Virus record (IMG/VR): IMGVR_UViG_3300045988_123188
Source: a virus
Lineage: Duplodnaviria; Heunggongvirae; Uroviricota; Caudoviricetes
Reading direction: 5' to 3' (one strand)
Length of the DNA stretch: 29,910 nucleotides
A model generated the notes under the pieces. The model ran no database searches, was not told where the DNA came from, and was given only the letters and a program-made list of their open reading frames with translations. Position 1 is the first letter of the stretch. Each line of letters begins with the position of its first letter. Positions 3,639-29,788 of this stretch are shown here, piece after piece. Both the position numbers and the translations under genes were made by a program.

Positions 3639-7319
<3,681 letters not shown>

Positions 7320-7345
<26 letters not shown>

Positions 7346-7865
7346 TCAGCAACCCCGGTATCAGTTCATCCAGCGCGGCTGCTTTGTTCATGGCTTTGAT
7401 AATATCCCGTTTCAGGAAATCAATATGCCGGTTATCCAGCTCAGGAAAACGTCGCTGCACCGACAGAGGAATACCGTCGAGAATACTGGATATTTCCCTT
7501 GCTATACGCGACAGCACGAAAGTACAGAATGCGGTTTCCACCACTTCAGCCGATTCTTTGGCATTTTTCAGTTCCTGCGCCGTCGCCTGAGCACGAGTCA
7601 GGCGATGGCGCTCAAATTCAAGTGTTCCGGGGTGAAGATCTGCCTCGCTGGCCAGCCGCAGTTCTTCAACCTCCCGGCGCAGCTTTTCGTTCTCAATTTC
7701 AGCATCCCTTTCGGCATACCATTTTATGACGGCGGCAGAATCATAAAGCACCTCATTACCCTTACCACCACCCCGCAGAACGGGCATTCCCTGCTCCTGC
7801 CAGTTCTGAATGGTACGGATACTCGCGCCGAAAATGTCAGCCAGCTGCTTTTTGTTGACTTCCAT
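7320..7865 (-). CDS. Nu1: terminase small subunit Nu1
   Basis: 181 aa, MEVNKKQLADIFGASIRTIQNWQEQGMPVLRGGGKGNEVLYDSAAVIKWYAERD..., lambda Nu1 with N-terminal wHTH. Confidence 0.92.
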
Positions 7866-8075
7866 TGTTCATTCCACGGACAAAAACAGAGAAAGGAAAC
7901 GACAGGGGCCAAAAAGCCCGTTTTCAGCACCTGTCGTTTCCTTTCTTTTCAGGGGGTATTTTAAATAAAAACATTAAGTTACGGCGAAGAAGAACGGAAA
8001 CGCCTTAAACCGGAAAATTTTCATAAATAGCGAAAACCCGCGAGGTCGCCGCCCCGTAACGGCCCGGATCGCCGG
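7866..8075. other. closed cos site (cosB next to Nu1, cosN cohesive-end sequence at ~8043-8054, cosQ side toward 8075)
   Basis: Plus strand carries AGGTCGCCGCCC, the reverse complement of the lambda 12-nt cohesive end GGGCGGCGACCT, flanked by sequence recalled from lambda left end (CGCGGGTTTTCGCTATTTATGAAAATTTTCCGG as reverse complement) and right end (CGTAACGG...CCGGAAAGGACCCGTAAA). Confidence 0.85.
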
Positions 8076-8127
8076 AAAGGACCCGTAAAAATGATAATGG
8101 TTATCATTTTCAATGTAGTCCGGTTTC

Positions 8128-8300
8128 TTCCACCATCGCACCGGACAGGCGACTATGAGGGGACAACGCCGCGCTCCGTTAACGCGGTAAACCCCGGTGT
8201 GTATCGTTTTTGATTATCCCCGCACACTCGCGCAGAGGAGTCTCCCTGTCGGGCTGCGGTCTCTGTTAATGAGGGAATACAGCGACGATACGGCGCATGA
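8128..8300. repeat. direct repeat copy A (~170 bp, ~80% identical to copy B at 9913-10090)
   Basis: Shared blocks CCGGTGTG(T/C)ATCGTTTTTGATTAT, CCGCACACTCGCGCAGAGGAGT, CGTCGGGCT, GGTTAATG, ACGGCGACGAT in the same order and orientation. Confidence 0.7.
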
Positions 8301-8412
8301 TGTGTCAGGCTTGAATACATTTATCCGTTAAAAGGGATATCAGTTAAGTTATCCCGTGTAGGGTATAAGCCATTATCAAAGCCACTCAGTAGCGAATGGC
8401 TTTTGTAATGGA

Positions 8413-8862
8413 CTATTTAATTAGTGATGCTGCGTATTCGATTAGATATAACTTAGGTGCCAACCAGATTTTTAACCATGTCATATTGGTTACTACAGCA
8501 ATAATAAAACTTACCCACAGAACAAAAACTGCTGCTAATGGTAAGATAAGAAAACTAATCTCACCGTTACTTTCCCAAATCATGGTCGGTTTGTATTTAG
8601 GCTTCCCTTTTTCCCATGACCATCCTTCATTATCGAACTTACCAATTTCAACTTTTTGGTACTGTTTCTTCATAAACCAAATAACCAGCGGGATTGTTGA
8701 AATGGCTATTAATGTTTTAATCAGGCTATCAACCATATTCCATACCAGCAACTGATGAACAACATCCGGAATCTGAGCCTGACTGAATGCAATGGCGGAA
8801 TCAATTCCATCGCTGGCCTTCTTCAATAAATCAACAAGAATTTTATTTGCTTCTTCTTGCAT
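8413..8862 (-). CDS. small membrane protein, two predicted TM helices, unknown function (cassette gene 2)
   Basis: Start moved to internal ATG (MQEEANKILVDLL...) because the track start is a TTG; AGGA SD upstream; hydrophobic segments IKTLIAISTIPLVIWFM and ISFLILPLAAVFVLWVSFIIAVV. Confidence 0.5.
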   Translation of the reverse strand: MQEEANKILVDLLKKASDGIDSAIAFSQAQIPDVVHQLLVWNMVDSLIKTLIAISTIPLVIWFMKKQYQKVEIGKFDNEGWSWEKGKPKYKPTMIWESNGEISFLILPLAAVFVLWVSFIIAVVTNMTWLKIWLAPKLYLIEYAASLIK

Positions 8863-8986
8863 GTTTATATCCTGTAAGTTGTAAGCCTGTTCGAGAAAAA
8901 TAAACAACTACGAGAGACAGAAAAAAATATCTCAGGCTCTCTTTCTATAAGCTTTTAGTTGAGGATGTTCTGCAAAACAAAACTGG

Positions 8987-9847
8987 TTAGTTATGTAACT
9001 GCTTCCGGAATACAACAGCCGACGAGCTACAACGTAAAATTCGTTTGATTGTGGCAGTTGAGGAAACAGACTTGCATTTCTCAACATCATCAATAATGAC
9101 CACATCCGGTACAGGAATGACGCGGGTATGCAATGTTTTTGCACTAATAACATCACAGCCATTCAGTGGTCGAATATCTGCATCTTCAGGCACTACCAGA
9201 AGCACACGTTTTTCCGGTGCAGAAAAGCCAGCAGCAAGAGTGCGTGACAATAAAGTCATTCCGCTGCGTGGCTTCATACAAATTTCAGAAATATGATTCT
9301 TTTCGTCCAAATGATGCTGGACATCATTTTTATCATCACTCAACAACTCTGCTGTTAATACAATCCCTGCTGTCTCAGATTTCCAGGAAATGCTGATATC
9401 CTGATCATCTGCATCAACATCATATTTCATCGAGTAAGGACTAAAGCTACGTCCAACGAACGCATCATTTACCAGTACACGCCCACCCTGTCTGACCTGA
9501 AAGTCAACGCGCCCGGAAAGCTGATTTGCTGTTACAAGCAATGCCTTTTTTCTTTTTGTTTTATTGCTCATTGCCACCAACTGTTCAGCCATCTCTCTTG
9601 TCACACTACCAGAAACTCTTCCTTGCATTTTCACAGAAAATTTTCTGGATGTAGTAGCATCGACATTAAAAAATCTGGATGTAATCAGGCAGTTATTAAC
9701 AATTGGCATCAGCTCACTTACGATTGTAAAAAATTCCCGGTAAAGCTCATTTTGCTTTTCAACACACAGCTTTCCACAATCGTCCAGCTTACGCTCAAGA
9801 GCACTTAACCTTTCCATTATTGAATTAATTTTTTGCAACTCTTTCAT
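8987..9847 (-). CDS. hypothetical 286-aa cytoplasmic protein, N-terminal coiled-coil-like region, no domain recognised (cassette gene 1)
   Basis: ATG at 9847 (MKELQKINSIMERLSALERKL...) preceded by AGGAGG; the 373-aa track ORF is an artefactual extension through repeat B and a palindrome; C-terminal VLLVVPEDADIRP...VIPVPDVVIIDDVEKCK is beta-rich and acidic. Confidence 0.55.
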   Translation of the reverse strand: MKELQKINSIMERLSALERKLDDCGKLCVEKQNELYREFFTIVSELMPIVNNCLITSRFFNVDATTSRKFSVKMQGRVSGSVTREMAEQLVAMSNKTKRKKALLVTANQLSGRVDFQVRQGGRVLVNDAFVGRSFSPYSMKYDVDADDQDISISWKSETAGIVLTAELLSDDKNDVQHHLDEKNHISEICMKPRSGMTLLSRTLAAGFSAPEKRVLLVVPEDADIRPLNGCDVISAKTLHTRVIPVPDVVIIDDVEKCKSVSSTATIKRILRCSSSAVVFRKQLHN

Positions 9848-9870
9848 CAAAACCTCCTGACAAAGATACC

Positions 9871-9888
9871 GTGCGACCACGGTCGCAC
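9871..9888. promoter_or_regulatory. sopC-like palindrome GTGCGACCACGGTCGCAC (putative SopB/ParB centromere site), ~25 bp upstream of the 286-aa gene start
   Basis: 8-bp inverted repeats around a 2-bp AC core; one of five near-identical copies; resembles the F sopC motif TGGGACCACGGTCCCA as I recall it. Confidence 0.6.
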
Positions 9889-9912
9889 GCTCCTGAATAC
9901 ATGCCCTGTTTC

Positions 9913-10090
9913 TTCCACCCTCGCACAGGACTGGCGAGCATGAGGGACAAACCCGCGAATCATTAGTGCGGTAAAAACCCGGTGTGCATCGTTTTTGATT
10001 ATTTCCGCACACTCGCGCAGAGGAGTTCCCCGTCGGGCTACGGTCATGGTTAATGCGGAAATACGGCGACGATGCAGCGCGGTATTTAAT
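9913..10090. repeat. direct repeat copy B (partner of 8128-8300)
   Basis: See copy A; copy B carries a perfect 9-bp inverted repeat TATTTCCGC...GCGGAAATA that is imperfect in copy A, with one compensatory pair. Confidence 0.7.
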
Positions 10091-10108
10091 GTGCGACCAC
10101 GGTCGCAA
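10091..10108. promoter_or_regulatory. sopC-like palindrome GTGCGACCACGGTCGCAA
   Basis: Second copy, directly abutting repeat B. Confidence 0.6.
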
Positions 10109-10127: not shown

Positions 10128-10439
10128 TTATGCTACAGAGGAACAAGCTGGCGGGTAATTCAGCGTAGTGAATACCGGCATCTCCATCTTGTATGCGTAA
10201 TGATACTCAGCAGTTGCTCCAGCAGACGCTTTCCAGCCAGGAAGCATCAAAATAGCATCAGCACAACGAAGCATTGCAAAGCAAATATCCATGTATTCAC
10301 GTTGTGTCAAACCATTAGGCAAAGTGGCTGGATTCAAGACAGAGTGACCATGTCGTGACAAACGATCTGCCTCTTTATTAAAGGCGTCACGATTAAAGTT
10401 CTCATATCCCGTCATTGGCCCGGCAATATAAATTTTCAT
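10128..10439 (-). CDS. DUF4406-like / nucleoside 2-deoxyribosyltransferase-like small protein
   Basis: MKIYIAGPMTGYENFNRDAFNKEADRLSRHGHSVLNPATLP... pattern typical of this family by recall; ATG confirmed. Confidence 0.55.
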   Translation of the reverse strand: MKIYIAGPMTGYENFNRDAFNKEADRLSRHGHSVLNPATLPNGLTQREYMDICFAMLRCADAILMLPGWKASAGATAEYHYAYKMEMPVFTTLNYPPACSSVA

Positions 10440-10480: not shown

Positions 10481-10918
10481 TTAATTCAGGCATTGCGTCT
10501 TGATGTATTCCTGCAAGTAGTTAACCTGCGCAGTTATCCTGTCGATCCCACTTCGGAGACGGTAATAATTGAGTTCAGCATCTGCTGTAAGTCTTGGGCT
10601 TTCTCCATCGCCCATGCTGCTGGCTCCGGTCGTTGACTTTGCACAGGTGGCGGCGACTTGCAGGCGCTTACGCCCAGCAGAAACATCAGCACGGAGGCTT
10701 TCGATAGTCGCGTTAGCATCAGCAAGCTCCTTTGTATATCTGGCATCGAGTTCTGCTACGTCACGTTGACGCTTCTGCATATCAGCGATTGTGGATGTGG
10801 CTTTATCGCGCTGCTCTTTGTAGGAGATGGCGTTATCACGGTAATGATTAACCGCCCATGACAGGCAGACGATGATGCAGATAACCAGAGCGGAGATAAT
10901 CGCGGTTAACCGACTCAT
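10481..10918 (-). CDS. Rz: spanin inner-membrane subunit Rz (i-spanin)
   Basis: [39 protein letters not shown]... nearly identical N-terminus to lambda Rz by recall; ATG at 10918. Confidence 0.85.
10534..10719 (-). CDS. Rz1: spanin outer-membrane lipoprotein Rz1 (o-spanin), embedded in Rz in the +1 frame
   Basis: [36 protein letters not shown]: signal peptide, lipobox Cys, proline-rich; nested-in-Rz architecture. Confidence 0.6.
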
Positions 10919-11006
10919 GACATCAACACCCCAACGGCCAGAAACCACGGCCACGCATCGTTGCCATTAAATGCGAGCAACGCTGCCATGAAAAAGAAAA
11001 TCATGC

Positions 11007-11507
11007 TCATTGCTGCCCCCACAAACAGACTTCACGCTCAATCTCACGACGAGTCATCAGGCCTTTCCATTGCTTACCGCCAGCAGATATCCAGCGACGT
11101 AGCTGATCACATGCGCCTTTGATATCGCCCTGGTTTATTTTGCGAAGAAGCGTCGATGTTCTGAAATTGCCAGCACCCACGTTGTAAACGAATGAGTAAA
11201 GAGCGCCGCGCGTTGTTTCCGGTATATCGACTTTGATGTACGGGTTAATTTGTCTGGCGACAGTGGCAAGGTCTTTATTCAGGAGAGCTTTGCATTCTGC
11301 TTCGGTATACGTTTTACCTAGCATGATGTCTTTTCCAGTGTGTCCGTAACATACAGTCCATACGCCAACAATATCTTTGTATGGTATGTAACTGACACCT
11401 TCCAGACCATCGTTACCACTTGGGCCAGTGATGAGCATAGACGCTATGGCAATAGCCCCGCCACCAATAGCAGCTGTGACAGCTTTGCGTAATGATGACT
11501 GCATCAT
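11007..11507 (-). CDS. R: SAR endolysin (phage lysozyme, P21 R-type)
   Basis: N-terminal SAR segment [20 protein letters not shown] followed by [25 protein letters not shown]... resembling P21 R as recalled. Confidence 0.85.
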
Positions 11508-11776
11508 ATTTCCTTCGGTGCTCTCTTCCCCAGCTCTCCAATAACCATCGCTGTAGCAGAAAGATTATTGGTATTAGTTTTATCCAATATGTCCTGCAAT
11601 ATCTTCGTGCGCTTCATCTGCTCGCGTTTATTGAGCCGGTATGTAAGCACACCGAGGATAATGCTGAACGCGACACCGATAATGAAGCTCCAATCCTGCA
11701 ATGACAGGCTGGCAAAGAACGCAGCAAGACCAGCGCTACCATAAGGTGCACTTCTGTATAGTTCATCCATCTTCAT
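11504..11776 (-). CDS. S: class II holin / pinholin with MKM dual-start motif
   Basis: Begins MKMDELY (two starts separated by a Lys, as in holin/antiholin pairs), two hydrophobic helices, 4-nt overlap with the endolysin. Confidence 0.65.
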
Positions 11777-11871: not shown

Positions 11872-12948
11872 TTACTCAAATAACTTTTTCACTTCATCAA
11901 CTGTCTGAAGATAACGTTCGCCCTCAATCTCAATACCTATTGCCTGACGTCCTAACTTCAGCGCAGCTTTAATAGTTGAGCCTGATCCCATAAAGAAATC
12001 GGCAACGATATCTCCGGGGCGTGAACTACTCTTTATAATATGTTCCATCATCGCTGCAGGTTTTTCACATGGGTGCTTGCCAGGATAATATTGCACAGGA
12101 GGAAACTCCCATACATCGGTATAAGGTACATCAGCAGTAACATGAAATGGACGGCGTAAATTTTCATACTGAGCCTTCAAATCATCATACTGCTTCTTTA
12201 CTTCCTCATAATGCAATTTCAGATCGCTATAACGCTTTTCATGTTCTGAATAATCAACATTAAAAGGATATGGACACGGGACACCGAGTGAATCTGCCTT
12301 CCTGCGAAATAATTCGCATAGTTTATTAAAATCAATTAATGATGGAAGCCGCCACTGCGAATAAGAAAACCAGTGTGAACACATCTGCTTTCCTGTCGCT
12401 GAATTAATGTCTGCGGCTGATATATCTAACTGACGGCGAGCCAGCGAAAAAGCATCAATTAGTGGAGAAAAAATATTTTTTCTTAAATCTGCACATTTTG
12501 AAGCATAACCTGACTGACCTTTAGCATAACCTGACGCGCCGTAATGCTCTGCAAATAATATTCTTTCAGTAGCAGGAAAATAAGCCCTTAAACTTTCTTT
12601 ATGACAACCGCGCCACATACCACTTGGTTTAGCCCAAATGATATGGTTCAGAACATTGAAACGGTCGCGAGTTAATAATTCAATTTTTGACGCAAGGCGA
12701 GAGCCGGTAAACATATACAGGCTGCCATTAGGGGCCAATATCCGCCAAAATTCTGCCAAAAATTCGTCAATCCACCCCAAAAAGTCAGCATCGCTATCCC
12801 ACTGGTTATCCCATGCGTTAGCCTTTACGCCGAAGTATGGTGGGTCTGTTGCAATCAAATTGACCGAGTTATCAGGGATGGTTTTGATAAATTGCAGAGA
12901 ATCTGCGCAAACGAGTTGTGCGCCATGAATATTAGTGGTTTTGAACAT
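11872..12948 (-). CDS. DNA N6-adenine/N4-cytosine methyltransferase, no partner endonuclease evident
   Basis: DPPY motif (LIATDPPYFG) near the N-terminus and FMGSGST S-adenosylmethionine-binding motif near the C-terminus; ATG at 12948 (MFKTTNIHGAQL...). Confidence 0.8.
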   Translation of the reverse strand: MFKTTNIHGAQLVCADSLQFIKTIPDNSVNLIATDPPYFGVKANAWDNQWDSDADFLGWIDEFLAEFWRILAPNGSLYMFTGSRLASKIELLTRDRFNVLNHIIWAKPSGMWRGCHKESLRAYFPATERILFAEHYGASGYAKGQSGYASKCADLRKNIFSPLIDAFSLARRQLDISAADINSATGKQMCSHWFSYSQWRLPSLIDFNKLCELFRRKADSLGVPCPYPFNVDYSEHEKRYSDLKLHYEEVKKQYDDLKAQYENLRRPFHVTADVPYTDVWEFPPVQYYPGKHPCEKPAAMMEHIIKSSSRPGDIVADFFMGSGSTIKAALKLGRQAIGIEIEGERYLQTVDEVKKLFE

Positions 12949-13083
12949 AGCTATTATTTTTTTGCCTGGGTAAGCTAACCCGGCGATGCGCATCGCGGGT
13001 GGGCTTTAGGTTCAGCCTATAGCTCTGGCATGGGTTGACCGCAGGACAAGCTGCAACTTGTCCTGCGCCCACTTTTCAGGCAC

Positions 13084-13192: not shown

Positions 13193-13210
13193 GTGCGACC
13201 GTGGTCGCAC
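13193..13210. promoter_or_regulatory. sopC-like palindrome GTGCGACCGTGGTCGCAC (inverted core GT)
   Basis: Third copy, between the small-gene cluster and the late promoter. Confidence 0.6.
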
Positions 13211-19712: not shown

Positions 19713-19938
19713 TTTCTTGTGCGACCACGGTCGCACCCTCTCTGATTTCCAAGTAACGCTTAATCCAAAGATTTTCTATATGCTTATTACCTGGCTGATT
19801 TGATAAATACCAATCGGCAATTACAGACTGCTTATTACTATCTGGTCGTGTCCTGTAACCACAAGTTGGACACCAGATAACATATTCATTTCTTACCCCC
19901 GAATACCTTAATTCTGGCTTCGACGGTTTCCTGAACAT
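19693..19938 (-). CDS. hypothetical zinc-ribbon-like small protein (81 aa, CLCK...CPTCG)
   Basis: Start at internal ATG (MFRKPSKPELRY...). Confidence 0.4.
   Translation of the reverse strand: MFRKPSKPELRYSGVRNEYVIWCPTCGYRTRPDSNKQSVIADWYLSNQPGNKHIENLWIKRYLEIREGATVVAQENENNAI
19719..19736. promoter_or_regulatory. sopC-like palindrome GTGCGACCACGGTCGCAC overlapping the RBS region of the gene at 19712 and the 3' end of the upstream gene
   Basis: Fourth copy. Confidence 0.6.
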
Positions 19939-21800: not shown

Positions 21801-24800
21801 ATGACATTAAACGATTTCTATGCGGATCGCTTTGGCAGCGATCCGTTCTCGCTAATTGAAGCAGCACGGGATGAACTAACCGAGCTGGCACAGATGGCTG
21901 GTATCAACTGGCCTGCCTGTTCCGACAACATCCAACTCAACCCTCGCGGGGGGGTTGAGCGTTACTCTTCATACAATAAAACATCTCCAGAAGCTCTCGA
22001 AAAGAGCCTGAAAGGACGCGTAGAAATTTACTCCCGGCTGGAACACAGCAAAGGGATTGATTACCCGTTCATTAACTTCGTCCATAAAGGCAGCGATGCT
22101 GGCTCATGGAGCGGTTTCTCCTTCCTGTTTTCTGAATATCGCCGTGAGCAACAACGGAATAATGCGACCGTGGTCGCACAACCGGAAGAAGAACGGGAAA
22201 GAATAGAACGTCAGGCCGAAGCACGTCGTCGCCGTGAAGAACAAAAACGAATTAATGACCTGAAAAACAACCAAATGGACCATGAACGTTTGCTGGGATG
22301 GCTGGCATTCCACAGCGCGTGGGAACATGCTCCGGCTGAAGACGGCTCATGGCCATATGCGATTAAAAAAGGTATTCGTGACGTTTTTAGTTCATGTGAT
22401 GTGCGTCGCGTGACCAGTCACGACAGTGCGAAATGGAGTCGGGGACCAACCACATATATGGCTATCCCTCTGGCTCACCTGGACGGTCGTTACGATGGTC
22501 GTATTGTGGGTTGGCAGCGAATCGACAAACAAGGTGGGAAATACCAGACCAGCGCAGTAACCAGCGGCGATTTCGTCGGTGCCTGCTTTGTTATCGGTGA
22601 GCTGAAAGGGGCGCAAAACATCGCTGTTACAGAAGGTTTTGCTACTGGTGCATCCATCTGGCTTGCCACGAAAAAAGATAAACGCTTTGACGCTGTGGTT
22701 GTCGCTGTATCCGCTAACAACATGGTTCATGTTGTGGAACAACTGGTAAACATGTACCCGGCGGTAAAAATCACCTGCGCACTGGATAATGACCGGAAAT
22801 CTGCCACAGAAGGAAAAGGGAATACCGGCCTGCGGACTGGCTATGAAATCTTATCGAAATTCAACGATGTCCGCTGCGTCTATCCAACTTTTGAAGACGA
22901 TCCGCAAATGGAGTGCAGTGACTTCAACGACCTGCACAAACTACGTGGACTTCGTGAAACAGCACGTCAACTATTTGCAACAGCAAACCGCCTGAAAACC
23001 GGTACTGATTTGCTATCTCTGACGCTCAACCGCCTGAAGACAATTAAGCGGGATAACCGTCGTACTTTTGCCAAAGAGCTGCTGAGAGCGGTGGATATTG
23101 GCATGCTAACCTGCCCGGTTCCTAACAGTCCGTCAGATTTATTTAACATGTTCTGCATCGTTCTGCGTGAAATGGGACTGGAAAATATCTATCGCGCTAC
23201 GGTAAAAGACCACATTGCCCGTCGCCTGAATAAAAAGTGCCGTATTGCCCAGGCTCCGCGCTCTTTCAGCGAACGCATAACTGATCCCAATAAACGCCCT
23301 CAACATATCACCTATAAGCGTTTTGAAACTTCGGTAATGACCGATGATCTCCTGAAGTACGTGCAATCACTACAGGGGATAGTCATCGTCCGTGCTGGTA
23401 TGGGTTCCGGCAAATCTACTGGATTGTTACGACCGTTAATGCATAGCTCAGAACGTGGTATCTCTGTTGCTCACCGTGTCTCCCTTATTGGTGGCCTGTG
23501 GGAAATGATGACAGAAGGAAAAGGTGTAAAAGCCGATATCCTGCACTATCAGGACCCTGGCTATCAGGAAATGGCTCCATACGCCAGTAAACTGACCATC
23601 TGCATAAACTCGATTGTTAAAAACTGCTGGCAACCGTTGATGCGCCAGCACGACTATTTTGGCTTTGACGAGGCCACACAAGGGCTACGTGCCGTTCTTT
23701 CCGGTCGGGCTATGGAAAACCCAGTGGCTGTATTCAATACGCTAATTGACGCGCTGGCCAGAACGGAACAACACCCAATAATGGTGGATGCTGATGCGAA
23801 CGATCTGCTGGTTGACCTGGCTGAACTGGCTATGAAACGCCGTGAAGAACTAGGTTTACCGGCATGGCTGCAGATCCACGTAATTGAATTACCTGTTGAT
23901 GTTCGCAACCGCGAAACAGGTGAGCCAATCCGGGTTTTTTATACAGAAAAAGATCGCATCATGACCGAGGTGGTGAAAGCTGTATCGGATGGCGAAAAAA
24001 TCATGTTGGCCACCGACAGCTCCACCTTTGCAGAAGATGTGACAGCCACCCTGAGAATGCATTTTCCTGGTAAGAAATTTCTGTGTGTAAACCAGAAAAA
24101 CAAACCAGAGCCAGAAGTTGAAGCATTTACCAATCAACCGAAAAAGATGGTCAAAAAATACGACGGCCTGATTTATAGCCCGTCTATTTCATCCGGCGTG
24201 TCGATTGAGCAAAAACATTTTGACCGTCATTTCGGCATGTTCTGTGGTGAAGTTGTACCCAGCGACGCAGTGCAAATGCTACGCCGCGACCGTACAGCAA
24301 AAGAATTTATTATCGGCTTTGATAAAGCTCGTGCAAAACGTGAAACTGACCCGCAAAAAATAGAACGAGCATTCGCCCAGGCATTGCTTGCTACCGCAGG
24401 TATGAACGGTGAACTTACGGATGTCGTTTTCGATGGCGACCGTATATCAATGGGGGTGGCCAATACCGACTTTACCAGGATGAAAATTAAAGCAGCCGCA
24501 ATTGAAGCGACTGCGCGTAACGACTACGCCAGCAACATGATCTGCATCATGCACAGCGACGGTTATAAGGTATCACCGCTGGCCACCGATTATGCTGCGA
24601 ATGATATCGGTAAAGATCTGCGTAAAGAAGCGCGGGATATTGTGTGGGAACAGACACTGGATCTGCACCTCAATACAGAAACTCCACAAGAATCAGAGCG
24701 TGAAAAACTGCTAAAAAAACGCGCGCTGACGCTTGAAGAACAGGCAAAACTTGTCCGCTGGGATATTGAAAACGAACTGAAACTACCGGTTGAAGAAGGC

Positions 24801-26999: not shown

Positions 27000-27110
27000 T
27001 GACGTGCGCGTCGTTTTGACGGTAAAGTTTACTCCGCTACGGTAAATCCCGTAGCCGGGCGTAGGAACCCGAGTAAATGAAGCGCACAACACGCGCCAGC
27101 GTGTTTTTTT
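27000..27110 (+). ncRNA. candidate small antisense regulatory RNA (c4/CA-like) of the anti-repressor locus, ending at an intrinsic terminator
   Basis: Hairpin GCTACGG-TAAATC-CCGTAGC (~27036-27055), terminator AACACGC-GCCA-GCGTGTT + T7 (~27088-27110); 7-nt blocks CGGTAAA and GTAGGAA are complementary to TTTACCG and TTCCTAC ~130 bp downstream in the icd leader (~27181-27200). Confidence 0.3.
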
Positions 27111-27273
27111 GTGTGTAAAATCTGCGTACACCAAATTTATGGTGGCTCAGATGGGGCAGCTTTTAGCTGGCCGGTTTCTTCGTTTACCGGTATTCCTACC
27201 CCCGTCTGGGCTACCGCCATATAGAGCGTAGGAACTCTGGTGGTAGCACGACCAATTAAACGGAGTGCATACC

Positions 27274-27874: not shown

Positions 27875-29788
27875 TTATCCGAAATATGTCAGCCATGCTA
27901 ACTGCATTGCTGATATAGGGCTGTTTGCACTGCCGGACCAAGCATAATTCTGGCCATTATAATGAAACTCAACAACGTATGAGCCATCACCAATATTTCT
28001 CACAGGCTTAAATACCGGCTTAGATACAGGTGAAGAAGGCGCGGGCGGTTGCTGTTCTTCTACGCTCTCTTCCTCTTCCTCTTCCTCTTCCTCTTCCTCT
28101 TCCTCTATCTCAATTTCGTCGTCATCCAGATCGTCATCCTCTGATAATTCATCCGTCTGTTCAGGTATTGCTTCCAGCTCTTCTTCGTCAGGCATAACGA
28201 TTTCTGGAGAATCTATTTTCAGCTGCCATTGTCCATTTTCGCCAACAAATTGCCCCAGAGCATCAGCAGCAAATTCCAGGTATCGACTAATCATTGTAGG
28301 GCTAAATTTGAATGCTCTTAGAGTGCTGTTCGTGATTTTTATAGAGGGGTCATGCTCTACCAGCTGCTTAACTGTGTTATGCAGACGAACCCCGGCATCT
28401 CCTCTGGCGAATCCTGGCATTTCGTCATCAAGCTGCTGCAATGCTTCCAGCCTGGTATTTTCGTTTCCAGTATTTGGCCTCCATGTCTTTGAGAAGTTGG
28501 CCAGCTTGAATTGCTTATAGTGTAATTGAGTGTTTTCATCGTCATGGCCTAAAATTTCCATAAAGAAAACATCCTCATCTACGTTTTTCCAACGAGGATC
28601 TACGCGGAAAAACATTTCATACGCAATACGGGCATAAATAGCACGACTATCTTTATAAACACGGCGGTCATCTTTGAAAAATGATTTAACCCACGGGTTA
28701 AAAGCCTTTGCTAATATGGCATTAATCCGTCCGTTTTCAGAGCGTGTGTCGTTATCTCCATAACCTTTAACGACATCATCAAAATCAGATGCTGCTGGGC
28801 ATGAGCGAAGTACATTTATTAAATAAACAAATGTTTTTGCTTCGCATAATGTATATATTTTTCTGGTTATATCATCAGAAGTTCTTTTTTTTGCTTGGCC
28901 TAAAAAATCAACGGTATACTTACCAGAAACAGTAAATGTACCTTGATACATAATCTCAATCATTCGTCTTCCTGACAATGCAGCAAGTGCAAATGCCAAA
29001 GGAGCCATACCTGAACGAGTGTTTAGATTATTTAATGTAGCAGGGCTATTTATAATATCGTAAATAGCTTGCATATATTTAGGGTAATCAATGACCACCA
29101 CGTTACGTTTCTTATTGTGCAGAACGTCCGCCCATCGTTGCTGGATAGATGCGCGTTCGGCAGGGCTTAGTTGAAGATGATAGAGAATCTCATGGTTAAC
29201 TTTTAGCTGATTCAACTCCTCAAGTAAGGCAGATCCTTGCTGTAGTAATTTATATAAATAATCGCGCTTATCTTTCCAGTTATCGCTAGTTAAATCAGAT
29301 ATGGCGAATTGCCACTCTTTATATTTATTTGATAATTTTAATAACTTATTATGACTTTTGTTATCACCAATTCTGATATTAGATAAATCTTCTGATAAAG
29401 GGAGAATTAATTTTAATTTTGCCTGTAAAGCTGACATTCTCTGGCGAATATCGGCAGCAGGTAGAGAAAGCCATGACAATAGCTCCTCATTATATAAAGG
29501 ATACTTTTCAGATAGGCGATGTATATTTTTTTCAAAGCTATGATGAAGTTTATCATCAAACCGTTTTCTGGCCCTGCTCATATAGGCATTGAAGGTGTTG
29601 GCTGTAATTCTTTTTTCTAATCCTTTCCCCCTAAACTTTCGCTTATCATTAAATAATGCATTTTTAAATTTTAATGCAACAGCCTTTATTTTTTTTGTTT
29701 TTTCCCCTTGAGGACGGTCAGAGTTATCTATTGACTCAACATCGCTAACAAGTGAGTTTATTAATTCACCGATTTTTACTTTGCTCAT
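27875..29788 (-). CDS. telN: protelomerase TelN (telomere resolvase)
   Basis: 637 aa; MSKVKIGELINSLV...KRITANTFNAYMSRARKRFDDKLHHSF..., YLYKLLQQGSALLEELNQLKVNHEILYHLQLSPAERASIQQRWADVL, NTRSGMAPLAFALAALSGRRMIEIM, RINAILAKAFNPWVKSF...RVYKDSRAIYARIAYEMFF (catalytic Tyr region) match N15 TelN as recalled; SD GGAGAGGAAA. Confidence 0.9.
   Translation of the reverse strand: MSKVKIGELINSLVSDVESIDNSDRPQGEKTKKIKAVALKFKNALFNDKRKFRGKGLEKRITANTFNAYMSRARKRFDDKLHHSFEKNIHRLSEKYPLYNEELLSWLSLPAADIRQRMSALQAKLKLILPLSEDLSNIRIGDNKSHNKLLKLSNKYKEWQFAISDLTSDNWKDKRDYLYKLLQQGSALLEELNQLKVNHEILYHLQLSPAERASIQQRWADVLHNKKRNVVVIDYPKYMQAIYDIINSPATLNNLNTRSGMAPLAFALAALSGRRMIEIMYQGTFTVSGKYTVDFLGQAKKRTSDDITRKIYTLCEAKTFVYLINVLRSCPAASDFDDVVKGYGDNDTRSENGRINAILAKAFNPWVKSFFKDDRRVYKDSRAIYARIAYEMFFRVDPRWKNVDEDVFFMEILGHDDENTQLHYKQFKLANFSKTWRPNTGNENTRLEALQQLDDEMPGFARGDAGVRLHNTVKQLVEHDPSIKITNSTLRAFKFSPTMISRYLEFAADALGQFVGENGQWQLKIDSPEIVMPDEEELEAIPEQTDELSEDDDLDDDEIEIEEEEEEEEEEEEESVEEQQPPAPSSPVSKPVFKPVRNIGDGSYVVEFHYNGQNYAWSGSANSPISAMQLAWLTYFG
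28067..28102. repeat. perfect hexanucleotide microsatellite (CTCTTC)6 inside telN, encoding a poly-Glu run
   Basis: Six tandem perfect units on the plus strand, equal to (GAAGAG)6 on the coding strand, giving EIEEEEEEEEEEEEESVEE. Confidence 0.85.

Follow-up and report, generated by a model that had tools for sequence, protein, structure and literature searches.

The closest described counterparts of the element reported here are the R-sites of T7 and sib of lambda, which are signals for RNase III processing and retroregulation in polycistronic phage mRNAs. Two other known systems bear on the same locus: the morons of lambdoid phages (Juhala/Hendrix), and the dispersed SopB centromere sites IR1 to IR4 of the linear plasmid prophage N15, which are tabulated in Table 4 of PMC7205306. 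We analyzed the virus record IMGVR_UViG_3300045988_123188 (Caudoviricetes; 29,910 nucleotides [nt], the whole of which is called the window here). The locus in question, at positions 8128 to 10108, holds genes for a 286-amino-acid (aa) and a 149-aa protein next to the cohesive-end site cos, together with two direct repeats. The first-pass annotation had described a two-gene cassette flanked by these repeats and guarded by palindromes. The repeats and a sopC-like palindrome proved real, but the former are not the ends of a cassette and the latter are not its guards. Our overall reading, to which we assign a probability of about 0.75, is that the window comes from an N15-like prophage in which a mosaic slot holds two unrelated morons, that the repeats are copies of a structured RNA of the late operon, and that the palindromes are centromere sites. 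The most interesting item is the repeat itself, apparently an undescribed structured RNA motif of lambdoid late operons.

A conserved element of lambdoid late operons

Pairwise alignment of two ~230-nt stretches containing the repeats gave a mean column identity of 86%, in which the longest identical run was 22 nt. A 25-nt core pattern occurs twice in the window (0.00 expected), and a covariance model built on the element found exactly two copies there, both on the minus strand. The boundaries were accordingly set at 8119 to 8299 and 9904 to 10088, compared with 8128 to 8300 and 9913 to 10090 initially.

A search of IMG/VR with the core pattern returned at least 120 loci. The 70 unique copies of the element have sharp ends on both sides and many different flanks. 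On the side that lies upstream in the late direction, the element begins 10 nt past the Rz stop codon in about 30 collected loci; on the downstream side it often directly abuts cosQ/cosN. The minimal layout is Rz, element, cos, and Nu1. In 933W-like Shiga toxin (Stx) phages, which have a different terminase, the element lies just upstream of the small-terminase gene. BLAST detected the element in 398 phage records, in 391 of them at full length, including phages 434 and 21, mEp460, Stx1 and Stx2 phages, and Salmonella S107. A near-identity search placed it in at least 1892 of 5426 complete Escherichia coli genomes, at 4524 places. The lambda copy lies at about 46,860 to 47,035, between bor and lambdap78 (locus L136, 1464 to 1639, equivalent to lambda 46,863 to 47,038); the copy in the K-12 prophage DLP12 lies between borD and ybcV, and that of Sakai prophage Sp10 comes right after Rz. 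Scanning one genome per species with a degenerate 21-mer yielded mostly chance matches; true copies occurred only in Escherichia and Intestinirhabdus and on a few contigs that are apparently contaminants. Near-perfect copies lie on tiny contigs labeled Pseudomonas yangonensis (351 bp) or Thiomicrorhabdus (468 bp), as well as on contigs of metagenome-assembled genomes labeled Collinsella and Nanosynbacter (L150, L187, and L169 to L171). These are probably due to contamination or misbinning.

Judging from these sequence comparisons, the repeats represent two copies of a discrete, conserved, noncoding element of lambdoid late operons, which is normally single copy and located between the lysis module and cos or the small-terminase gene. 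The repeats matter more than the cassette that they had been thought to flank: they expose an unannotated structured RNA, supported by covariation, in the late operon of lambda-like phages, among them lambda, DLP12 of K-12, and Shiga toxin phages. Lambda itself, Stx-converting phages, and at least a third of E. coli genomes contain the element.

Structure and possible role of the RNA

We derived a consensus fold with RNAalifold on the late-direction strand and extended it by hand with P4, P5, and the pseudoknot helix P6. The fold has seven helices (P1 to P7). P1, P2, and P3 make up an elongated, irregular rod at the 5′ end, about 27 bp in length and containing conserved internal loops; P4 and P5 form a stem-loop, and at the 3′ end P6 and P7 form an H-type pseudoknot. 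Among 70 distinct sequences, 98.7% of the 3270 base-pair cells are standard pairs, and 10 pairs are changed on both sides. None of 500 shuffles reached the observed pairing or the observed covariation score, and sliding the 3′ partners lowered the pairing to 33 to 62%. In the pseudoknot, P6 (GUCGC/GCGAU, with variants CUCGC/GCGAG and CCAG/CUGG) crosses P7 (UCCGG/CCGGA, with the variant UCCUG/CAGGA), and both helices covary. The Salmonella copy has three consecutive P2 pairs and several P7 pairs changed, with pairing kept. A diverse set of 17 sequences showed 16 compensatory pairs, in an alignment that was fitted to the model and is hence biased towards structure. Single-sequence folding of either repeat was uninformative (z-scores of +0.35 to −2.3), and an alignment was needed.

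The same alignment points to one strand. We counted 352 G·U cells on the late strand versus 14 on the opposite strand, and the same helices mirrored on the opposite strand were only 80 to 95% paired. Because of the G·U counts and the weaker mirrored pairing, the element appears to be selected as RNA on the late-transcript strand. Compensatory and wobble changes that are strand specific and exceed both shuffled and slid controls are what conserved structured RNAs display in general, and we consider it very probable that the element is a functional structured RNA. The element also contains invariant unpaired stretches, for example, AAUCAAAAACGAU and GGAAGAAAC.

We found no promoter or terminator conserved with the element: the flanks vary up to both boundaries, and a consensus scan gave no site. 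Therefore, the RNA would be made only as part of the Q-antiterminated late transcript. We infer from its position and shape that it would provide a cis-acting signal for processing or stability where the lysis genes give way to the packaging genes, for instance, an RNase III/E-type site or a 3′ barrier resembling the T7 processing sites or lambda sib. The likeness to RNase III processing and retroregulation signals rests on the rod shape, a long irregular hairpin with conserved internal loops, and on the location of the element in an untranslated gap between functional modules (lysis and packaging) of an antiterminated transcript. In contrast to T7 R-sites and sib, the element is much larger, has an additional stem-loop and a pseudoknot, and shows no sequence or covariance-model similarity to any curated family; in Rfam 15, no family matched the repeats at the gathering threshold or at an E value of ≤10. 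We put this cis mechanism forward tentatively, as the leading candidate but with odds clearly short of even.

The presence of an extra stem-loop and a pseudoknot, together with the invariant unpaired stretches, hints at a more specific partner. It is possible, if rather doubtful, that the element belongs to an unrecognized functional RNA class of lambdoid phages whose specific partner or activity (a protein, a ligand, a ribonuclease, or catalysis) would control the hand-over of expression from lysis to packaging or would counter a host function, in contrast to a merely passive hairpin. An RNA acting in trans or through such a partner could serve as a regulatory RNA after processing, titrate a protein as a sponge, bind a ligand, catalyze a reaction, or act as an antidefense decoy. 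An architecture of seven helices with a pseudoknot and invariant unpaired stretches exceeds the needs of a simple RNase III hairpin, and one copy is retained 5′ of a cargo gene in the window. Nevertheless, the element has no conserved promoter or terminator of its own, the conserved loop GGUGGAAGAAA has no complementary target in the window, and no riboswitch or ribozyme family matched, which makes action of this kind unlikely.

Known prophage small RNAs (sRNAs), namely, the AgvB and AsxR anti-sRNAs, the Pas sRNAs, Esr41, STnc100, and StxS, resemble the element in occupying conserved positions in lambdoid prophages. They differ from it in being 50- to 90-nt Hfq-type RNAs with promoters and terminators of their own; moreover, the anti-sRNAs and StxS lie just downstream of PR′, and the Pas sRNAs are reported near Q/holin-lysozyme or phage structural genes. 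The Rfam families AgvB, AsxR, Esr41, and STnc100 gave no match to the repeat region, and literature searches retrieved no description of the element, only other prophage sRNAs at other positions. We also considered the element as an Hfq-peak RNA and rejected it, since the nearest Hfq CRAC (cross-linking and analysis of cDNA) peak in Sakai Sp10, EcOnc11, maps beside the element and on the opposite strand; this placement allows for a coordinate shift of ~140 nt between the published coordinates and NC_002695.2. The abundant EcOnc10, EcOnc11, and EcOnc12 peaks (Tree et al. 2014) apparently correspond to the terminator or 3′ untranslated region (UTR) of a small gene (ECs_1967 type), which is convergent with the motif and directly adjoins it. 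Next to the Sp10 element, this convergent-gene terminator lies at about 1,946,945 to 1,947,010 (L206, 6446 to 6511).

Should the RNA govern how late mRNA is processed, or how lysis and packaging genes are balanced, it would be relevant to the timing of lysis and to late expression in Stx phages. Its role is directly testable in lambda.

Two cargo genes in the Rz-cos slot

Both open reading frames (ORFs) described between Rz/DUF4406 and cos are present on the minus strand. Over positions 8400 to 9900, the G+C content (GC) drops to 35 to 44%, versus 49 to 55% in the flanking phage genes. Many relatives have Rz, the element, and cos with no gene between them, others have different genes, lambda has bor, and N15 has gp59, which is unrelated to the 286-aa protein (E = 2.2). 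This comparison with N15 and other relatives bears out the proposal of a cargo slot next to cos. The genes are present or absent between conserved neighbors and deviate in base composition, as morons do. As with other lambdoid morons, they have low GC, are inserted between Rz and cos, are each known from other contexts, and show homology confined to the gene. The difference is that a promoter consensus scan upstream of either gene gave nothing convincing; hairpins do follow the 149-aa gene.

The 149-aa protein belongs to a family of unknown function in PHROGs (phrog_3054). This family is broad, with 488 clusters from Escherichia, Salmonella, Cronobacter, Citrobacter, Klebsiella, and Pantoea, and its C-terminal amphipathic helix is conserved. 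Its usual site is alone in early-left (PL) operons of P22-like and lambdoid phages, between N/sieB and cIII/kil, which applies even to copies that are 89 to 90% identical to the one in the window. A Klebsiella homologue is located between a KilA-N gene and an endonuclease gene. Across these contexts, homology ends at the start and stop codons of the gene itself. The 149-aa gene therefore looks like an independent single-gene moron.

The 286-aa gene starts with the ATG at 9847, preceded 6 nt upstream by AGGAGG, and this reading fits the length (276 to 286 aa) and the N terminus of the full-length homologues. A mechanically called ORF of 373 aa (8987 to 10108) reads through repeat 2 and was rejected as an artifact. 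No hydrophobic segments were found in the 286-aa protein, versus two in the 149-aa protein. PHROGs places it in a separate family of unknown function (phrog_2571), which comprises 15 clusters at 90% identity, exclusively from Escherichia. An exhaustive HMMER search of 1.84 billion representatives found no distant relatives except Escherichia fragments and one partial match (P0144), which is 32% identical and is encoded at a Q-holin moron site. In the prophage that carries it (L014, 2109 to 5001), the gene for this partial relative, which matches the beta domain of the 286-aa protein, is situated between Q and the holin gene, and no genes were called in a 2.9-kb stretch upstream. A 276-aa homologue with 79% identity is encoded between Rz and cos in L142, where the membrane-protein gene is missing. 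The same relative has a HicA/HicB toxin-antitoxin pair between the methylase and holin genes (1238 to 1876).

A check for defense homology gave no support: neither protein had a match in Pfam, PADLOC (0 families at E ≤ 1), NCBIfam, or PDB profiles. The models have low confidence; that of the 286-aa protein shows a coiled coil at the N terminus, a middle part rich in beta structure, and a C terminus of alpha/beta type. Fold searches with the cargo protein models returned only helical-hairpin matches and were uninformative, so that these low-confidence models appear silent on the function of either protein. A degenerate nuclease core (PD...DVEK) suggested for the C terminus of the 286-aa protein found no Pfam or PDB profile match and no structural support. 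Its spacing, PD248...D254-V-E-K257, is atypically short for a PD-(D/E)xK nuclease, in whose alpha-beta-beta-beta-alpha-beta core fold the residues D...(D/E)xK lie on adjacent strands.

One or both genes might act singly in exclusion or defense, for example, with the 149-aa protein as a superinfection exclusion (Sie)-like function expressed early or in lysogeny. This is compatible with our overall reading. The moron position, the low GC, the recurrence of the 149-aa family in many temperate phages from across the Enterobacteriaceae, in their N-sieB-cIII accessory region, and the conserved amphipathic helix are in its favor; however, there is no homology to known defense or exclusion proteins, and many morons serve other roles. 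We regard it as possible, on the unlikely side.

The first-pass annotation had gone further and proposed that the two genes form one abortive-infection or superinfection exclusion system, with a soluble sensor and a membrane effector, delimited by the repeats. The genes are indeed adjacent on the same strand in a low-GC cargo slot, they co-occur in at least 25 E. coli genomes, and the 149-aa family usually adjoins sieB. However, relatives do not keep them together as one unit. The two families are distributed independently (488 versus 15 clusters), the 149-aa gene is mostly alone in PL operons and the 276-aa homologue is alone in L142, homology of the 149-aa gene extends no farther than its start and stop codons, 124 nt separate the two genes, PADLOC gave no matches, and the repeats are not specific to the cassette. 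A single module is therefore improbable. Because of the different distributions, the occurrence of each gene alone, the limits of the 149-aa homology, and the intergenic gap, the two genes are best read as independent single-gene morons that happen to adjoin each other here and in the E. coli genomes just mentioned. The cassette would thus be ordinary mosaic cargo rather than the hoped-for undescribed two-gene defense system.

The co-occurrence of the two genes, which could mean a functional link rather than recent common descent, is one of several points that weigh against our overall reading. The AlphaFold models of the two proteins have low mean confidence (pLDDT of 57.7 and 62.5). In N15 proper, the element is absent from the equivalent interval. 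The lambda and DLP12 copies have two mismatches in P6 and a shorter middle domain, and in the phage 21 copy (L139) a deletion removes the 5′ strand of P6. These three cases imply that some phages can do without the element or at least without its pseudoknot; the lambda, DLP12, and phage 21 copies may be partly degenerate versions in laboratory phages. In addition, an earlier description of the RNA may have escaped the literature and Rfam checks, and the function given to it is deduced from position and shape.

Centromere sites, the duplication, and the replicon

The sopC-like palindrome noted upstream of the first gene, GTGCGACCACGGTCGCAC, has exactly the sequence of centromere sites IR1 and IR4 of N15. 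The sites IR1 to IR4 share the 18-bp palindrome GTGCGACC-NN-GGTCGCAC. Five copies occur in the window (Table 1), versus 0.01 expected, and they are dispersed over a linear plasmid prophage that encodes a protelomerase. As in N15, several copies are scattered over the replicon, and some are located within late-gene regions. IR4 of N15 is placed correspondingly: the DUF4406 and methylase genes precede it, and the last cargo gene (gp59) and cos follow. The window differs from N15 in having two copies 220 bp apart that flank an RNA element, which the N15 interval does not contain, and its sop operon (sopAB) lies outside the window. By sequence, the palindromes are predicted N15-type SopB partition sites dispersed over the replicon, not guards of a cassette. 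The N15 record annotates IR4 as a "putative rho-independent terminator" stem-loop (N15 45,560 to 45,584; L207, 4061 to 4085).

The claim that the repeats delimit the cassette failed on comparison with relatives, most of which have a single copy of the element; L002 contains the same cassette with one copy. Compared with L002, the window has an exact 220-bp insertion that consists of one RNA element (copy 2) and one extra IR. The order of element, IR, and 286-aa-type gene recurs in L142, with the 276-aa homologue, and the order of element, IR, and cos recurs in L018 to L020. In the simplest account, the duplication would stem from recombination among mosaic phages, some of which have cargo upstream of the element and others downstream. 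As the longest identical run between the copies is so short, deletion of the cassette by recombination between them should be rare.

Alternatively, the repeats could be the ends or attachment sites of a mobile cassette (a target duplication or recombinase sites), with the duplicated 17- to 18-nt palindrome as a target-site duplication. The cargo does lie between direct repeats, and the insertion relative to L002 is precise and flanked by the same palindrome. Yet the element is single copy, with many different flanks, in almost all relatives; no recombinase or transposase is encoded nearby; the palindrome is a known centromere site found at five dispersed places; the copies share no identical run longer than the 22 nt noted above; and none of ~140 loci had the element and palindrome at an unrelated site outside the late operon with fresh duplications. 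We consider a mobile cassette very improbable, and recombination among mosaic relatives remains our preferred account of the duplication.

Two annotations need correction, as the small "hypothetical proteins" over the element and the "terminator" stem-loop at IR4 of N15 are misread features. Among the 8 E. coli matches listed, none had an annotated feature beneath the element. No reading frame is open in all copies, whose lengths (169 to 182 nt) differ by nonmultiples of 3. A mini-ORF at the 5′ end (MRRIVAVFPH) was rejected, its start codon being missing in copy 2 and its frame interrupted in lambda. It is hardly credible that the opposite strand of the repeat is the functional one, serving ylcI/ybcV-type genes as a 3′ UTR or encoding a small protein: some records do annotate 44- to 58-aa hypothetical proteins over it, and in L002 and L003 (in L002 and PhiR70_1 as a single copy) it follows ylcI/ynfO(-ybcV) genes of that strand, but ~340 A·C mismatches would replace G·U pairs, the frames and indels are as just described, and many phages with the order Rz, element, and cos lack any gene on that strand.

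Because genes for a protelomerase, a 1331-aa RepA-like protein, a repressor, and the Q antiterminator are present, we read the window as an N15-like linear plasmid prophage with lambda-type late genes on the minus strand. The best full-length DNA matches, ~46- to 62-kb E. coli extrachromosomal records, phage PhiR46_1, and Ravinvirus YDC107_1, are consistent with such a prophage. In the late direction, the gene order is methylase, holin, lysozyme, Rz, the DUF4406 gene, the two-gene/repeat region, cos, Nu1, and terminase A. The DUF4406 gene is another accessory (cargo) gene of the Rz-cos slot. cosN was identified with GGGCGGCGACCT, the cohesive-end sequence of lambda, and cosQ-side sequence extends to ~8095.

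Table 1. Positions of the RNA copies, cargo genes, palindromes, and other features in the window
Feature	Position	Strand	Remarks
RNA motif copy 1, ~181 nt	8119-8299	−	Directly beside cosQ/cosN; covariance-model match 8110-8309, 237 bits
RNA motif copy 2, ~185 nt	9904-10088	−	57 nt upstream of 286-aa gene; covariance-model match 9895-10093, 206 bits
149-aa protein, two hydrophobic segments (43-64, 106-124), phrog_3054	8413-8862	−	
286-aa soluble ORFan, phrog_2571	8987-9847	−	ORF, homologues, low-confidence model
N15-type SopB centromere palindrome (IR), GTGCGACCACGGTCGCAC, predicted	9871-9888	.	24 nt upstream of 286-aa start; identical to N15 sites
Second IR copy, predicted	10091-10108	.	Beyond RNA copy 2; identical over 17 nt, one mismatch at last base
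Further IR copies, predicted	13193-13210, 19719-19736, 22162-22179		Dispersed over late and early regions
Hairpin-rich spacer (GGGATA...TATCCC; GCCATT...AATGGC+TTTT)	8330-8410	.	Between cargo and RNA copy 1; read from sequence
DUF4406 (nucleoside 2-deoxyribosyltransferase-like) gene	10128-10439	−	Between Rz and RNA copy 2; homologous to N15 gene 57
Rz	10481-10954	−	Late region
Lysozyme	11007-11507	−	Late region
Holin	11504-11776	−	Late region
DNA methylase	11872-12993	−	Late region
cosN cohesive-end sequence	8043-8054	−	Reverse complement of lambda GGGCGGCGACCT; read from sequence, aligned with relatives
Nu1	7320-7865	−	After cos in late direction
Terminase A	5420-7345	−	After Nu1 in late direction
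TelK/TelN-type protelomerase	27875-29788		Encoded in window

The hairpin-rich spacer also precedes the element in 51 collected loci of relatives. A terminator scan did not call its hairpins, the loops of which exceed 8 nt. Beside the protelomerase gene, at 27036 to 27221 on the plus strand, Rfam matches to isrK (27036 to 27109, 62.5 bits) and to C4 antisense RNA (27135 to 27221, 73.6 bits) lie side by side, and this stretch resembles an immI-like antisense control region of the P1/P7 type, here within an N15-like phage.

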